64,000 nucleotides of DNA from Oligoflexia bacterium (GTDB taxonomy: Bacteria; Bdellovibrionota; Bdellovibrionia; JABDDW01), in contig JAYTHU010000231.1 in assembly GCA_043732305.1 (NCBI GenBank), positions 28,807 through 92,806 on the forward strand, written 5' to 3'. Positions 17,236 through 35,234 of the stretch are shown piece after piece; the stretch's first letter is position 1, and each line of letters begins with the position of its first letter. Position numbers and translations under genes: made by a program. The notes under the pieces are model-generated. The model saw only the letters and a list, made by a program, of their open reading frames with translations, was not told where the DNA came from and ran no database searches.

Positions 17236-19155
17236 ATGGAAAACTATTTTCACATTCTTAGAGTAGCAGGACTTATTAGCTCGATTGTATTTTTCTACTG
17301 GATCGCAAGAAACAGTATTTCGATTGCTGAAAAGCAAGAAGATGATTTAGACCATGGCCTAGTCGACAAAAATTTACTCGAACAAAGTGTCAAAGCCTTC
17401 GGACGCAACACCAGTTCCATCGTTCATTTTTATGGAGAACTCTCATATTTCACTCCTTTCAGCGAGGAAGAAGCGAAGGACCCAAGATCTTTGATCGGCT
17501 ACATATCTGGCTCAAAAAATAACATCATGATCACGGACCCACTTTGTGATCAGAAGGACGCAAAAGCATCGATAGTCGCTTTCACAAAATTCACACAAGC
17601 GCGCGGAAAAACAAGTTTGCTTTTTCCAATCGACATGGTCACGGCAAGACAAGCCGCTGAAATTGGTTACGGGATTTTACAAGTAGGAAAAGAACCTGTC
17701 TTCGATTTAAAAAGTTACTCCATCGATACCATCGAAAGAAAAGTTCAATCCGCAATCAGACAAGTTTACAACAAAGGAATTATTATTGAACATCTCACTT
17801 TCAAAGAAATTCAGGAGCGCGGATACGAAATAGAATTAGGTCTTGTCCTAGATGAATGGCTTCTCAGTCGGCGCAGCGAGAAAATGGAACTTCTTCTTGA
17901 AGTGAGTCCTTTCAAATATGCCGAAGAAAAAAAATATTTTATTGCTCGATCTCAAAATCAGATAGAAGCCTTTCTTTCTTGCTCACCTATTTTCCCCCGA
18001 AAAGGCTTTTTCATTCACGATCTTATTCGACGCCCCACGGCCATGAACGGGATCGCCGAAGCACTGAACACGGCGGCGCTCAATCAATTCAAATCAGATG
18101 GCTATGAGTTTGCAAGCTTAGGCACGGCACCTCTGGCAGGTCTTGATCAAAAAGGCGCAAATTCAAATTATAAAATTTTAAACAAAATTCTTGTGCATAT
18201 TTTTAATTCTCATAAAATGTTTATGCAGTTTAAATCATTATACAGCTTTAAGAAAAAATTCAAACCTACAGCAGAAGAACCTACATATTTAGCTTTCTAT
18301 CCACCAAGCCTCAAAATGCGGGATGCTCTGACAGTCATTGGACTTTTTAGTAGTCAAGGCCCAGTGGGAAATATTGTATTTAAAATCAAACGATGGTTAG
18401 ACGGAGAGCAATTGCCCCGTCCTCTCATTTCGCTGGTTTCTCCTGACGTGGCGACACTTGCCAGACCAGTGCCTTTCTCGTTTTACGAATTTATTTCCAG
18501 ATTGAAATTTACTTTTCTAATGTTTGCGATGAACGTTTATACCTACGCCACCACCACGGATATGTTTGGCGAAATCAACCGCCAAACAGTTCATGATTAC
18601 GCATTTAGTTACGGCGATTTTTTTGCTCACAAATGGTTTGTTCTTTTCACCTCAAACTTCTTACATTTCAGCTACGCTCATCTCCTCATTAATATGACAA
18701 TGCTTTTCTTTTTCTGCGGAACACTGGAATTTATTGGGGGCAGTAAAGTGGCCTTTGCTAGTTTTGTAATCAGTATGAACGCGAATATTCCTTCGGCGAT
18801 GGTTATTTTGCCGATCCTCAAAATGATTAACGTGAGCGCCTGGCAGCACGTGTTTTCTTACACGGATGTTGGAGCGTCACTAGGAATTATGGGATGCTTC
18901 GGAGCTCTCATTCAGTTTTTTAAGAATAAAAGGCAAGTGTTAGTACTGGCATGTCTTATTTCGATGGGTTTTTGCGTGGTTAACAAAGAGTGGTTCGGAA
19001 TCGATCATACCTTTGCAATTCTCACCGGGTATTTTACGGGCTACCTTTACCTGCATCGAAGATATCAGCTTCGAGGCTTTCAAAGGTTTTTTGCTTCTCC
19101 CGCTCATCCAGGCCAACAAAATTCTCCGATACCTTTCCGGAAGATTTCCCGTTAG
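17236..19155 (+). CDS. DUF2156 (MprF/LPG-synthase C-terminal-like aminoacyltransferase) fused to a C-terminal rhomboid-like membrane domain
   Basis: DLIRR...NGIAE...ASLGTAPLAG and SLYSFKKKFKP (DUF2156); FLHFSYAHLLIN, DVGASLG and DH (rhomboid-like). Confidence 0.75.
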   Translation: MENYFHILRVAGLISSIVFFYWIARNSISIAEKQEDDLDHGLVDKNLLEQSVKAFGRNTSSIVHFYGELSYFTPFSEEEAKDPRSLIGYISGSKNNIMITDPLCDQKDAKASIVAFTKFTQARGKTSLLFPIDMVTARQAAEIGYGILQVGKEPVFDLKSYSIDTIERKVQSAIRQVYNKGIIIEHLTFKEIQERGYEIELGLVLDEWLLSRRSEKMELLLEVSPFKYAEEKKYFIARSQNQIEAFLSCSPIFPRKGFFIHDLIRRPTAMNGIAEALNTAALNQFKSDGYEFASLGTAPLAGLDQKGANSNYKILNKILVHIFNSHKMFMQFKSLYSFKKKFKPTAEEPTYLAFYPPSLKMRDALTVIGLFSSQGPVGNIVFKIKRWLDGEQLPRPLISLVSPDVATLARPVPFSFYEFISRLKFTFLMFAMNVYTYATTTDMFGEINRQTVHDYAFSYGDFFAHKWFVLFTSNFLHFSYAHLLINMTMLFFFCGTLEFIGGSKVAFASFVISMNANIPSAMVILPILKMINVSAWQHVFSYTDVGASLGIMGCFGALIQFFKNKRQVLVLACLISMGFCVVNKEWFGIDHTFAILTGYFTGYLYLHRRYQLRGFQRFFASPAHPGQQNSPIPFRKISR

Positions 19156-31558: not shown

Positions 31559-32725
31559 TTAAGAAAAAGTGACGCGAGAATCAATGGGTAGACGAATCAA
31601 AAAGACTAGTCTGAGTACTAGCAAAAGACATACACTCAAAAGGACTGGGATCATATTTTCAACTTGGACTTTGCTTCCAACAAAAAATCCTAAACATACA
31701 CCCAGATCAATTAAAAAATTGAGGGTGCCGAGGCGTCTTCCCAAACTAATTTCTGGTCCACTAATTCCCGCGTAAATCTGCAAGTAAAAAGAAAATAAAG
31801 GACAACAACAAATATAAAGCGAAGAAAAACCAATCACAACAAATGCTCTTTTTGAGATGAAGGCATAAATGATAAAACCTAAAGCTAATATGGTAATGGG
31901 TAAGAAAAACTGTTTGAGTTTTGCAGTTTCAATTTTTCTTATAAGCAACAGACCAATTAAGCTTGCTATTCCTCCACAAACCCAAAAAGCTGATACAAGA
32001 GATACAGATTTAAACAAAAGAATCTTTTGTACAAAAAAGGGATTCAATGGGATTGAAACTAAGCCAACCAAAATACATCCAAAAATAAAATCAACCGACT
32101 TTAATCCCGCCAACTCCGCTAATATTTCAGAGCTCTTCATAATATCTTTAATTTTTTGTGTTAAAATTAATTCTCTTTTTGTAAGTAGATAGGACTGTAT
32201 GATACCAGCCCCAATATATAGTGTTGCGCAAAAGAAAATGGCCATAAAACCGAAATAGATAAAAATGAGCGGACCTGCACCAAAACCAATCAGTTTTGCG
32301 CACGTCACCAAAAATGTGCGATTGAAGAATCTGTGTTTTAATTCCGCAGTCGAGAAGCCGGCAAGAAGCCACTTAGACTCAACTACATTGCTCATAGCTA
32401 AAATAAAATATAACAAAGGCAGGCTATAAATTGCAAAAACTAGATGTTTTGTTTTCAAAAAGGCAGAAATTGCCATCACTAGTAAAGCACAAAGGAATTG
32501 GCAAACAACGGCTGCGCGCTTTTGGAACCTGGAATCTGATATGATTCCCCCAAGCAAATCAAATCCTAGCGATCCTAAAATAGCGGAAAAATATATTTGA
32601 GAAAGATTATAATCGTTGTGATTCAGCGAAGACAAGAGAAGTGGAAAGCCAGTCCAAAAGAGACAACCAGCTAAAGTACTCATCAACGAAGACCCAAGAA
32701 GCAAAATCATCTTACACCTATCCAA
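31559..32725 (-). CDS. MFS exporter (divergent, about 12 TM)
   Basis: Hydrophobic helices throughout; motif-A-like GGIISDSRFQKR; overlaps the TauD gene by 19 nt. Confidence 0.7.
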   Translation of the reverse strand: MDRCKMILLLGSSLMSTLAGCLFWTGFPLLLSSLNHNDYNLSQIYFSAILGSLGFDLLGGIISDSRFQKRAAVVCQFLCALLVMAISAFLKTKHLVFAIYSLPLLYFILAMSNVVESKWLLAGFSTAELKHRFFNRTFLVTCAKLIGFGAGPLIFIYFGFMAIFFCATLYIGAGIIQSYLLTKRELILTQKIKDIMKSSEILAELAGLKSVDFIFGCILVGLVSIPLNPFFVQKILLFKSVSLVSAFWVCGGIASLIGLLLIRKIETAKLKQFFLPITILALGFIIYAFISKRAFVVIGFSSLYICCCPLFSFYLQIYAGISGPEISLGRRLGTLNFLIDLGVCLGFFVGSKVQVENMIPVLLSVCLLLVLRLVFLIRLPIDSRVTFS

Positions 32726-33327
32726 TAACGCCGAAGAAATCTTGCTGAGTCTTCTGCTAACCTTCCCCTACGATGTAAGTATCTATTGTTGTCAATTATT
32801 AGCAAATCGTGCTTTTCCCAATAAAATGTAACTCGAAACTTTTCACTTTCTTTGATCGCCTTGCAAATACTTCTAACAACGCTTTCCGATTTTTTTTGAG
32901 CTACTAACCAAGGACAAAAATACATTATTTCAACGCCCTTGATATTTCTTAGAAGCATCGGTACGTGAGAAGTCTCTTTAACACCATTTACCTCCGTAAA
33001 AATTTTTCTCATTTTGCATTTAACCGTATTGGAAATGATATTCTGAATATTAAGCCCGTCTAGAATTTCTGTTGCTTCCCGTGGCTGCGAACCCGGATTA
33101 TAGCAATGCCAAGCGATCCATTGTGCCTCGGGTGCATCATTGTGCCAAGCTATCGGTTCCTTTTTAAAAACTTTCGAGTTTTTTAACGGCATCAATTTTA
33201 CATCTGTAACGAGCAAAATCTTACCTAAATATTTAATAACTGACTCAGCACTATCTTTTTTAATGTTTTTGATTAAAACAAAACCATTTGGTCTGAGTTC
33301 TTCGGCCAATATCTTTTTAATCATCAC
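32707..33327 (-). CDS. TauD/TfdA-family Fe(II)/2-oxoglutarate dioxygenase
   Basis: Facial triad WHND...YLH, DLLIIDN, and the 2OG-binding R in RFLRRYW. Confidence 0.8.
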   Translation of the reverse strand: MMIKKILAEELRPNGFVLIKNIKKDSAESVIKYLGKILLVTDVKLMPLKNSKVFKKEPIAWHNDAPEAQWIAWHCYNPGSQPREATEILDGLNIQNIISNTVKCKMRKIFTEVNGVKETSHVPMLLRNIKGVEIMYFCPWLVAQKKSESVVRSICKAIKESEKFRVTFYWEKHDLLIIDNNRYLHRRGRLAEDSARFLRRYWIGVR

Positions 33328-33774
33328 TTATTCCACCATCTCTGGGAAATGCTTTGCGACAAGTCTCAAGGTGTTATCAATCATCTCTTTTTCACAACTG
33401 TGACTAATGAATGTGCCCTTGAGTCCCGCGTAAGGAAAGTGATGCAAATATTTACCGAAGATCAAATTACAATTTTTTTTGTAATTTCTTGTGTCGAGAA
33501 TATGCAAATGCCAAAATTCGTCGATCTCATAGGTGGGAACTATAAACTGCCGCGGGTACCTCTTGCATAAATACAAGAATATCCTGTATTGTTCTCCAAC
33601 TTGATGCGCTTTTTCTTTGCTCCAGCCATATCCTGAGGGCCCGCTAAGGCTTTTAGTCTTAATCCGATTTAAGTTAAGTGTGTCAAGAACCGACAAACCA
33701 GTTCTTAGTTTCTTAAATTGTTTTTCTCCAAATAACTTTTTTGGAGAGTTAAACATATAGTATTTAGATTTCAT
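33328..33774 (-). CDS. GRDP/DUF1399-like ('glycine-rich domain-containing protein-like') protein without a Gly-rich tail
   Basis: QYRIFLYL...IVPTYEIDEFWHLHILDTRNY...C...FGKYLHHFPY; SD GAGG. Confidence 0.7.
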   Translation of the reverse strand: MKSKYYMFNSPKKLFGEKQFKKLRTGLSVLDTLNLNRIKTKSLSGPSGYGWSKEKAHQVGEQYRIFLYLCKRYPRQFIVPTYEIDEFWHLHILDTRNYKKNCNLIFGKYLHHFPYAGLKGTFISHSCEKEMIDNTLRLVAKHFPEMVE

Positions 33775-33796
33775 GACATTTCCTCAATTGAAAAAT

Positions 33797-33819
33797 GCTA
33801 CGGCCTTAAGGTGACCGTA
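33797..33819 (-). terminator. Stem-loop between the small ORF and the GRDP-like gene (stabiliser or attenuator)
   Basis: Minus strand TACGGTC-ACCTTAA-GGCCGTA (7-bp stem with one G-U), just after the sORF stop; only a short U run follows. Confidence 0.5.
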
Positions 33820-33829
33820 CCGAAGCTAC

Positions 33830-33883
33830 TTATTTATAGCTGGTAGGATTTCCAGTTTTATACGACCATTTGATTTTTTTCAT
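33830..33883 (-). CDS. 17-aa small ORF MKKIKWSYKTGNPTSYK (candidate RiPP precursor or leader peptide)
   Basis: SD AAGAAAGGAGG, then AAAT, then ATG at 33883; TAA at 33830; first ORF of the operon. Confidence 0.65.
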   Translation of the reverse strand: MKKIKWSYKTGNPTSYK

Positions 33884-33903
33884 ATTTCCTCCTTTCTTGA
33901 ATT

Positions 33904-33979
33904 AACTCAAATCTGCAAGGTAGGGGCCAATGGATATTTACAGAACATGCGCCTCCCTTATTCACCTAAGATTTGAGTT
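33904..33979. repeat. Perfect 11-bp inverted repeat enclosing 54 bp
   Basis: AACTCAAATCT (33904-33914) and AGATTTGAGTT (33969-33979). Confidence 0.75.
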
Positions 33980-33981
33980 CC

Positions 33982-34008
33982 AAAAAAAAAGAAGTAGGCA
34001 CATCCTAC
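33982..34008 (-). terminator. Rho-independent terminator-like hairpin
   Basis: Minus strand GTAGG-ATGTG-CCTAC followed by TTC and T9. Confidence 0.55.
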
Positions 34009-34014
34009 ACATGC

Positions 34015-34043
34015 AAAATAATTTGCATTTCGCAAATTATTTT
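34015..34043. promoter_or_regulatory. Perfect 12-bp inverted repeat (operator or hairpin)
   Basis: AAAATAATTTGC-ATTTC-GCAAATTATTTT, overlapping a second palindrome ATGCAAA-ATAA-TTTGCAT at 34011-34028. Confidence 0.5.
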
Positions 34044-34159: not shown

Positions 34160-34708
34160 TTACAGCTTTGATTTTTGTAACGCCTTAAGTTGTTCTAAGA
34201 AAATTTTCAATTTATCTAACATTCCTTCAGAGGCTGACCATTTCTTTACCTTTTCTAATTTGATGGGATGATTCTTAGCTACTAAAAGTGCCTGCTCTAA
34301 ACTCTGTCTATCCTTCCAATGATAGAAAGCCGCAAGACGGTCCATCACACACTGAGTAGGCGAAAGCAGTTTCAGAACAAATTTACCCGATTTAATTCTT
34401 GCCTCTGGCTTTTCTGGAGTATCACCAATCATGAGGGTCCTTCCAGGAAACTCTACATAAAACGAAGCTCCGGAATGATAAAAATCTTTACCCTCAATTT
34501 TAAAACCTAGGGAGTACATCACTTTCTCAATTTTTTGATGATCGACAATGCTAAGGAAATTAACATCTTTCGATTTATATTTGTTATTTGAATAAATAGA
34601 TACGACTGCGCCCCCAACAAGAATAACATCGATGTCATGTTTTTCTAATTCTGCAGCTACAGTGATCGCAAATTCCCAAAGTGACATTTTTTTATTTAAA
34701 CTTTTCAC
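34160..34708 (-). CDS. Nucleotidyltransferase-fold protein (AbiEii/type IV TA-like)
   Basis: VILVGGAVVSIYS...SKDVNF (GG...DxD-like, second Asp is Asn); paired with an upstream wHTH gene. Confidence 0.55.
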   Translation of the reverse strand: MKSLNKKMSLWEFAITVAAELEKHDIDVILVGGAVVSIYSNNKYKSKDVNFLSIVDHQKIEKVMYSLGFKIEGKDFYHSGASFYVEFPGRTLMIGDTPEKPEARIKSGKFVLKLLSPTQCVMDRLAAFYHWKDRQSLEQALLVAKNHPIKLEKVKKWSASEGMLDKLKIFLEQLKALQKSKL

Positions 34709-35033
34709 AATGCTTTGCCCGTTCTTCGTGGCCTCCGGCGCTGCCTATAATATTTTTTTTTTCTTCTGCTGAAATAAACATGAGGGCCTTTTCACAAAGC
34801 CGTTCCACTTCAATTTTGAGAGGATACCGTGGATTAAATGTGAACATACGAAGATTTCCTAAGTCTCGGCCAACAAGAATTTCACCTTTTTCCAGACGAA
34901 TGAGTTGTTTACGAACTTGTGACTTAGACAACTTGAATGTGTTGGCTATGCCAGAAATATTTCCTTCTCCGTAATTTGTTATATAGAGGAGAATGCGTTC
35001 GGCTGTCTTATTACCTACTAAGGATTCAAGCAT
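34692..35033 (-). pseudogene. Winged-HTH protein, frameshifted in an A10 run near the C-terminus
   Basis: wHTH motif (ISGIANTF...VRKQLIRLE...FNPRYP). A11 instead of A10 (34753-34762) gives ...KKKYYRQRRRPRRTGKAL* with a GTGA stop/start overlap at 34705-34708. Confidence 0.7.
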
Positions 35034-35144: not shown

Positions 35145-35234
35145 TGGTGGAGAGGGTGAGATTCGAACTCACGAACCCCGTGAAGGGTCTCCAGTTTTCA
35201 AGACTGGTGCGATCAACCGCTCTGCCACCTCTCC
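35145..35234 (-). tRNA. tRNA-Ser (anticodon UGA), encoded CCA end
   Basis: GGAGAGGTGGCAGAGCGGTTGATCGCACCAGTCTTGAAAACTGGAGACCCTTCACGGGGTTCGTGAGTTCGAATCTCACCCTCTCCACCA; long variable arm. Confidence 0.97.

Follow-up and report, generated by a model that had tools for sequence, protein, structure and literature searches.

Biarylitides, whose precursor gene bytA encodes the peptide MRYYH and is accompanied by the cytochrome P450 enzyme P450Blt, and cittilins arise from extremely short precursors with practically no leader, in which the aromatic residues stand at positions i and i+2. Darobactin and dynobactin (darA-E), which are made by Gram-negative producers, have a leader of about 50 residues, the core W-N-W-S-K-S-F, the radical S-adenosylmethionine (radical-SAM)/SPASM enzyme DarE and the ATP-binding cassette (ABC) transporter DarBCD. 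PqqA is a first-gene peptide of about 23 residues, of which a Glu and a Tyr are cross-linked and excised to give pyrroloquinoline quinone (PQQ), and its short transcript is abundant. Finally, in the microcin C operon, export is carried out by MccC, a protein of the major facilitator superfamily (MFS). The first cistron of the same operon, mccA, comprises only 7 codons and is followed by a hairpin/terminator that precedes the first enzyme gene, resulting in an abundant short transcript (PMC4231749). Here, we describe a micro-open reading frame (micro-ORF) in a 64,000-nucleotide stretch of contig JAYTHU010000231.1 from an Oligoflexia bacterium (the whole of this stretch is referred to below as the window). 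Comparison with other genomes indicates that it is a real, conserved gene at the head of a small operon, and the reading that we favour for its product is the precursor of a ribosomally synthesized and post-translationally modified peptide (RiPP).

The micro-ORF and its translation signal are located as follows:

33830-33883, minus strand: micro-ORF of 17 codons plus TAA, product MKKIKWSYKTGNPTSYK, defined by reading of the frame and comparison of orthologues.
33888-33898, minus strand: Shine-Dalgarno sequence AAGAAAGGAGG of the micro-ORF, with its GGAGG core 4 nt 5' of the ATG.

A first-pass annotation of the region had reported a peptide with a Shine-Dalgarno sequence at 33830-33895, correctly in both respects but without indicating the strand: the start codon lies at 33883-33881 and the stop codon at 33832-33830 of the minus strand. 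Translation of the plus strand over 33830-33895 yields no ORF. The sequence confirms the remaining details of that description, namely five Lys, no acidic residue, aromatic residues at W6, Y8 and Y16, and a hairpin near 33797-33819. Six ATG-initiated ORFs of 10-30 codons preceded by a strong Shine-Dalgarno sequence are present on the two strands of the window, so that the micro-ORF taken alone is only moderately unusual and the case for it rests on comparison with other genomes. The window stretch itself was found, identical, in assemblies of two independent sediment metagenome samples. No RNA family of Rfam matches the region, either at the gathering threshold or at E up to 1. The bare peptides are shorter than the 20-residue minimum of the Pfam and NCBIfam scans; six extended versions were scanned instead and matched no family. 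The peptide has no curated family model, and the searchable literature contains no description of it.

In order to assemble a comparative set, homologues of the protein encoded by the next gene (PF27765 family; see below) sharing at least 51% identity were traced to their contigs, and the intergenic DNA just upstream was inspected. This gave 14 distinct loci (the window and 13 others), and one sister locus from the more distant relatives (see below) completes the set; a metagenome scan for further loci retrieved mostly distant PF27765 relatives. All 14 distinct loci contain a micro-ORF of 13-19 codons that conforms to the pattern M-[RK]-K-x-x-W-x-Y-x(4-5)-T-S-[Y/F/H]-x(0-3). The Trp, the Tyr at +2, the Thr and the Ser are invariant, and the residue that follows is Tyr, Phe or His. 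The W-x-Y and T-S motifs are separated by 4 residues in 12 loci; in the remaining two, among them the window, the spacer has 5. The net charge of the peptides ranges from +3 to +6, and a Lys is found at +4 from the Trp in 9 of the 14, several of which read W-N-Y-S-K or W-x-Y-x-K. The internal repeat (WSYK...TSYK) around a GNP turn that had been remarked upon at first is true of the window copy; the GNP is not conserved, and what the family retains is W-x-Y, a spacer of 4-5 residues and T-S-aromatic. The peptides of the other 13 loci are:

L001: MRKIRWTYKKTATSYKAM
L002: MRKITWKYSKPTTSY
L004: MKTTLKVKWNYRKSTTSFR
L006: MRKKTWNYSQPTTSHK
L008: MKKVTWNYSKTSTSYK
L009: MRKISWKYSKPATSYN (the sole one of the 14 ending in Asn)
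L011: MKKIKWNYKKEVTSYKVW
L012: MTWTYTKKVTSFK (Legionellaceae locus)
L073: MRKVKWTYTRSTTSFR
L154: MRKIKWNYRGGSVTSYR
L155: MKKVKVTWNYRRTATSYK
L162: MKKISWNYRKPYTSYK
L163: MRKIKWNYKKPSTSYK

Synonymous codons vary freely at the invariant residues: the Tyr is encoded by TAT in 7 loci and by TAC in 7, all four Thr codons are used, the Ser is specified by AGC, TCT, TCG and TCA (that is, by both codon families), and Arg2 is encoded by CGA, AGA or CGC, which argues that selection acts on the peptide rather than on DNA or RNA. Start codon, stop codon and Shine-Dalgarno sequence are kept in all 14 loci, the sequences of which differ widely, and AAAGGAG(G/A) occupies the same position before the start codon in 11 of them. 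Conservation of the frame across homologous loci, which had been put forward as a check on the initial prediction, is therefore observed, and to an extent far in excess of chance; the micro-ORF illustrates that a frame below the cutoff of every gene caller can be a real gene.

The carriers are Bdellovibrionales, Bacteriovoracaceae and Pseudobdellovibrionaceae assemblies, together with one Legionellaceae assembly. To our knowledge, the secondary metabolism of Bdellovibrionota has been little explored, and the carriers found here are uncultured, predatory-type bacteria of the Bdellovibrionota kind. At the Legionellaceae locus (L012, 1889-1996), only a poor ribosome-binding site (RBS) precedes the short start (MTWTY...), and an in-frame upstream ATG preceded by GGAGAG gives a 35-residue form, MVDTIKLANIQKNTSKTKKSKRMTWTYTKKVTSFK; judging from these signals, this copy may carry a longer leader.

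The micro-ORF leads a series of four minus-strand genes, of which the other three are:

33328-33774, minus strand: PF27765 (UCP032817-like) protein of 148 aa, identified by precomputed Pfam assignment and motif conservation.
32707-33327, minus strand: short, divergent TauD/TfdA-type Fe(II)/2-oxoglutarate oxygenase of 205-206 aa, a candidate optional tailoring enzyme.
31559-32725, minus strand: MFS-like polytopic membrane protein of 388 aa, the orthologues of which match PF07690 (MFS_1).

The Pfam assignment to PF27765 covers the window protein and all 104 matches; the motifs WHxHxLDT...HHFPY are invariant. A weak match to the C-terminal part of PF07173 (GRDP-like/DUF1399) was also obtained (24.9 bits for a cut-off of 22.7). 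Ten residues (W88, H89, H91, D94, T95, Y98, C102, H111, H112 and Y115) are invariant among 30 members, and the His, Asp and Cys among them could form a metal site. The AlphaFold2 model of the protein (pLDDT, the predicted local distance difference test score, of 86) is all-helical. We regard the PF27765 protein as the putative class-defining, peptide-modifying metalloprotein of the cassette. The family is large (9,643 clusters at E up to 0.001), and the full-length subfamily represented here makes up only a few clusters at 50% identity. Searches of the literature for DUF1399, PF07173 and UCP032817 returned plant GRDP papers or nothing, and the accessible portions of those papers make no link to peptide modification. 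These portions tie the plant GRDP/DUF1399 (PF07173) proteins to stress, growth, ovule development and seed size, and connect no peptide substrate with them; unlike the plant proteins, the subfamily described here is tail-less and accompanied by a separate peptide gene.

Several distant PF27765 relatives display unusual architectures. Many carry Gly/Cys-rich C-terminal tails, and the five proteins P0105, P0106, P0107, P0115 and P0119 variously show tandem duplicated domains, signal peptides, or tails made of Gly/Cys runs or repeated short motifs, in some relatives after a signal peptide; in the tail of P0107, ALCIGEKGTRC is repeated three times. Such tails may represent fused, substrate-like extensions. 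At L156-L158, a PF27765 gene resides in a phage-like context together with an RNA ligase, Cpn10 and a fusion of an SNF2 helicase to a peptidase C39, indicating that the family is not confined to cellular genomes.

Alignment of the TauD-like protein with its cassette homologues (nine sequences) shows conservation of H-x-D, a distal His (LHRR) and an Arg, so that the 2-His-1-carboxylate triad is intact. Its only matches in the PDB are remote, for example to carbapenem synthase (E about 0.01 over the C-terminal 40 residues), and a word-indexed search of 5.8 billion proteins recovered a single relative besides the protein itself, a scarcity that we attribute to the strong divergence of the cassette oxygenases. 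Of the 14 peptide-bearing loci, 10 have the MFS-like gene immediately downstream, as do L075 and L082, where the peptide region is cut off. Its product, a putative exporter, has no match in the PDB. No defence system was matched by the cassette proteins in PADLOC.

The distribution of the peptide follows that of its neighbours. It is found only with the one PF27765 subfamily defined by at least 51% identity; more than 130 loci with distant PF27765 genes (at most 48% identity) contain neither the peptide nor the MFS gene, and their contexts are unrelated, one resembling a large phage. The sole subfamily locus without a peptide gene (L153) is also without an MFS gene, and in L162 the peptide is accompanied by PF27765 and TauD genes with no adjacent MFS gene. 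Seven of the 14 peptide-bearing loci encode the TauD-like oxygenase, and its presence is mirrored in the C-terminus of the peptide: T-S-Y-[K/R] is the ending in 7/7 TauD-positive loci versus 1/7 TauD-negative ones (L163), the other six of which end in TSY, TSYN, TSFR, TSFR, TSHK and TSFK (Fisher two-sided p about 0.005, for 14 related loci and with no phylogenetic correction). Presence and absence of the oxygenase are interleaved on the PF27765 tree.

Small ORFs were also searched for upstream of the more than 130 distant PF27765 genes, and a related pair was found in L106/L107 only, both from ocean metagenomes. In this sister locus (L106 991-1743, and L107), two tandem paralogous peptide genes, with the products MLVKIRRYLSTSTKVRSKRMTSCYH and MLKKIRRAIIGSVKSPSQKITSCYNQM, each have their own Shine-Dalgarno sequence, and a single terminator hairpin follows the pair. 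After the hairpin comes the gene for a 40% identical PF27765 protein that likewise contains HHFPYAGL; a gene for a 471-residue MFS protein is located close by on the opposite strand. Like the peptides of the main family, the two have a basic N-terminal part and carry T-S-(C)-Y (TSCY) at the C-terminus, and they look like members of a sister family. It is usual for RiPP precursor genes to be duplicated in tandem, and unusual for leaders. Together, the oxygenase co-variation and the tandem sister genes are what a substrate-enzyme relation predicts, and they are awkward for a purely cis-acting leader.

Two further elements flank the micro-ORF:

33914-33929, minus strand: sigma-54-type -24/-12 promoter element TGGCCCCTACCTTGCA, with 10 of 11 specified positions matched and GG and GC in place.
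33799-33819, minus strand: stem-loop between the micro-ORF and the next gene, with 7 pairs (TACGGTC/GGCCGTA), the loop ACCTTAA and a T5 run at 33791-33795.

A scan for sigma-70 promoters before the micro-ORF produced nothing convincing, which led to the search that yielded the sigma-54-type element. It has GG at -24, GC at -12, the TGGCAC-N5-TTGCW spacing and a consistent position: only two such sites exist on the two strands of the window, and 8 of the 14 loci have an equivalent element 42-50 nt before the start codon of the micro-ORF, with one more locus having it at -65, for a background of 0.05 per 150 nt elsewhere in these loci under the same scoring. The promoter geometry predicts a transcription start at about 33903 and a 5' untranslated region of about 20 nt that would hold only the Shine-Dalgarno sequence; the micro-ORF would thus be the first element of the message, and not part of a long structured leader. 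Among the window ORFs scanned, no gene for an enhancer-binding protein was seen.

The window hairpin begins 10 nt past the micro-ORF stop and is followed by an RBS (GAGGA) and by the ATG of the 148-codon gene at 33774. A stable hairpin is found 7-20 nt past the stop in all 14 loci; the hairpin sequences are dissimilar, and about half have a T-run. In every one of the 14 loci the hairpin is retained in the minimum-energy fold of the whole leader, and no competing (antiterminator) pairing is conserved among these folds. The hairpin is likely to be a partial terminator or a transcript-stabilising element.

The DNA 5' of the micro-ORF contains two additional repeats. A 26-nt imperfect inverted repeat (33889-33914 / 33969-33994; 73% complementary) contains a perfect core of 11 nt, AACTCAAATCT/AGATTTGAGTT; the proximal arm covers the Shine-Dalgarno sequence of the micro-ORF, and the distal arm precedes the predicted sigma-54 start site. 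By pairing, it could mask the RBS of the micro-ORF in transcripts reading through from upstream. The second is located further upstream:

34015-34043, no strand: perfect 12-nt palindrome AAAATAATTTGC-N5-GCAAATTATTTT, about 112-140 nt 5' of the predicted start site.

This palindrome is possibly a site for an enhancer-binding protein or another activator, or else belongs to the terminator region of the gene upstream. Examined as a candidate enhancer site, it proved not to be conserved in the other loci, and its membership of the cassette is therefore uncertain.

How does the cassette compare with the described systems? Like the microcin C operon, it has a tiny first-cistron precursor, a hairpin before the enzyme gene and an MFS gene within the operon; in contrast to it, an MccB-type (ThiF/E1-like) adenylyltransferase is missing (no ThiF-like gene emerged when the window neighbours were scanned against Pfam and NCBIfam), a C-terminal Asn occurs in 1 peptide of 14, the enzymes are PF27765 and TauD-like, and the promoter is sigma-54-like. 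With biarylitides and cittilins it shares a minimal precursor and i/i+2 aromatics (here W-x-Y), although the peptide is three times longer and includes a second conserved motif, T-S-aromatic. With darobactin it shares a W-x-Y-x-K core and Gram-negative carriers, a likeness that serves as a lead only; DarBCD-type ABC transporters are missing, and the 'leader' is of about 5 residues. Neither a cytochrome P450 (expected of the former two) nor a radical-SAM/SPASM enzyme (expected of the latter) was detected in the cassette by Pfam and NCBIfam neighbour scans, and none is conserved in the gene tables of the homologous loci; this is consequently not a biarylitide, cittilin or darobactin system. PqqA is likewise a short first-gene peptide with conserved residues, but PqqB/C/D/E homologues are absent here, and it is Trp, Tyr, Thr, Ser and an aromatic residue that are conserved. 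What is found are two features generic to RiPP systems, a conserved short precursor gene (14 loci) and an adjacent gene for a putative dedicated exporter (10 of 14). As the cassette lacks MccB, P450 and radical-SAM enzymes, which define the families compared, we file it under general RiPP-like logic, outside the described classes. The proposal of a short aromatic RiPP precursor made by the first-pass annotation accordingly survives in its general form (conserved frame; invariant or near-invariant Trp, Tyr and C-terminal aromatic residue; first cistron before enzyme-like genes and an exporter), and its analogies to biarylitides, cittilins and darobactin do not.

The interpretation that we favour, and to which we assign about an even chance, is that the cassette is a new RiPP-like precursor system in which the PF27765 protein, with the TauD-like enzyme where present, modifies the peptide and the MFS protein exports it. 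It builds on the ORF and its conservation at the protein level, on gene order, on the hairpins and the promoter-like element, and on the co-variation with the oxygenase, from which we infer translation of the micro-ORF, the enzyme-substrate relation, the chemistry and export. The sigma-54-type promoter would drive a message in which the peptide is the first and best-translated cistron of a four-gene chromosomal operon. The peptide would consist of a basic N-terminal stretch, M-[K/R]-K-x-x, and a core, W-x-Y-(4-5 residues)-T-S-aromatic-[K/R], serving as substrate of the downstream gene products. The PF27765 protein would act in a metal-dependent manner on the invariant positions of W-x-Y, of T-S-aromatic or of both; the TauD-type enzyme would add an oxygen-dependent modification of the hydroxylation type where the peptide ends in Tyr-Lys/Arg; and the finished product would leave through the MFS protein. 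If the hairpin is a leaky terminator or an RNA stabiliser, only some transcripts would reach the enzyme and exporter genes, and, as for microcin C, the short transcript of the precursor would be more abundant than that of the enzymes. We advance more tentatively, as a possibility on the lower side of even, that the micro-ORF is the founding precursor of a new RiPP class, with a PF27765/DUF1399-like class-defining enzyme and, as its product, a cross-linked cationic W-x-Y-x-K peptide that resembles the darobactin core and perhaps acts on the envelope of Gram-negative prey.

Several observations weigh against a modified peptide. A precursor of 13-19 residues with a 'leader' of 5 is at the extreme short end for RiPPs, and the location of the ORF right before a terminator-like hairpin and an operon also fits a regulatory leader peptide. 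PF27765 has no demonstrated activity; the window protein has no sequence match in the PDB, no significant fold match in Foldseek and no recognisable peptide-recognition (RRE) domain. Most of the family stands alone in unrelated contexts, one of them phage-like, and peptide modification is therefore no proven family trait. The oxygenase correlation rests on 14 related loci. The sequencing runs that carry the window stretch are DNA metagenomes only, and no RNA runs were found for two homologous loci.

If a precursor is indeed encoded here, the cassette would constitute a minimal RiPP-like system of about 2.4 kb, with a 13-19-residue precursor, an enzyme family of new fold and an optional oxygenase that tracks the peptide sequence. 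It would also provide the first biochemical function for PF27765, a family of some ten thousand clusters distributed over bacteria and a phage-like context and having plant GRDP/DUF1399 relatives.

The alternative that survives best is a cis-acting regulatory leader, in which translation of the micro-ORF, perhaps with the ribosome stalling on W-x-Y...T-S-aromatic when a small molecule is present, as for TnaC or the Erm leaders, would control the hairpin and read-through, the peptide being functionless once released. The micro-ORF has an appropriate length (13-19 codons), lies directly 5' of the operon and is followed by a hairpin in 14/14 loci, as are leaders of the trpL, tnaC and ermCL type, which likewise consist of a short ORF and a hairpin before an operon. 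In about half of the loci the hairpin starts 7 nt past the stop, which would place its base under a ribosome that is terminating translation; roughly half the hairpins resemble intrinsic terminators, an efflux-type transporter is encoded downstream, and amino-acid conservation is equally expected of nascent-chain sensors. Yet the leaders lack a conserved terminator/antiterminator alternative, the hairpin persisting in every full-length fold and half of the hairpins being devoid of a T-run. The distance from the Trp to the stop varies between 9 and 12 residues and the tail after the motif between 0 and 3, a poor fit to a fixed stalling geometry. Unlike trpL, tnaC or ermCL-type leaders, the micro-ORF contains no regulatory codons in tandem, and other residues freely take the place of Lys; the C-terminus of the peptide co-varies with an enzyme gene, and sister copies stand in tandem in L106. 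In L162, moreover, the peptide goes with PF27765 and TauD where no MFS gene is adjacent. We therefore deem a regulatory leader rather unlikely. Its more specific form, the Trp/Lys-sensing attenuation leader originally offered as an alternative, finds no support: there is one Trp codon, Lys is exchanged for Arg, Thr and Ser, and the genes downstream are not Trp or Lys genes. Should the micro-ORF nonetheless encode a nascent-peptide leader, it would represent a new conserved family of sensor peptides on a sigma-54-type transcript, which would also be unusual.

Alternatively, the peptide could function unmodified, either as a secreted cationic signal or antimicrobial released via the MFS protein, or as a partner or regulator of the PF27765 protein, itself then a binding, immunity or chaperone protein. 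Protein-level conservation, the high positive charge and the aromatic residues would all be accommodated, as would the strict association with one PF27765 subfamily and a transporter, and PF27765 is a family without known activity. The invariant His, Asp and Cys of PF27765, on the other hand, suggest a metal site over plain binding, and an oxygenase with an intact triad that tracks the C-terminus of the peptide is not easily accounted for unless the peptide, or something derived from it, is modified; an unmodified product thus seems unlikely to us. A chance ORF, or a non-coding RNA or promoter-proximal DNA element behind the conservation, would suit a very short frame annotated by no gene caller but is highly improbable, as nucleotides vary where residues are fixed (four Thr, four Ser and three Arg codons), start, stop and Shine-Dalgarno sequence are maintained in 14 divergent loci, and Rfam offers no match.

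Upstream of the cassette are a terminator-like hairpin (34008-33994), a helix-turn-helix (HTH) and DUF2204 nucleotidyltransferase gene pair, and a tRNA-Ser(UGA) gene. The pair (34160-35033 and 35145-35234, both on the minus strand) consists of overlapping genes for a weak ArsR-like HTH protein and the DUF2204 nucleotidyltransferase, and resembles a toxin-antitoxin pair situated between tRNA-Ser(UGA) and the cassette. The G+C content is 0.35-0.38 across 31.5-35 kb versus 0.40-0.46 in most of the flanking sequence, which suggests a small, possibly acquired islet. Chromosomal housekeeping genes make up the remainder of the window (SerS, RlmL, Rho, RF1, PrmC, GatA/B and cyanophycin synthetase). 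SerS has its closest named relatives in Oligoflexia assemblies (71-72% identity), followed by Bdellovibrio and Pseudobdellovibrio (63-64%). Elsewhere in the window, an ORF on the plus strand (17236-19155) fuses LPG_synthase_C, the C-terminal domain of phosphatidylglycerol lysyltransferase, to a rhomboid protease domain.

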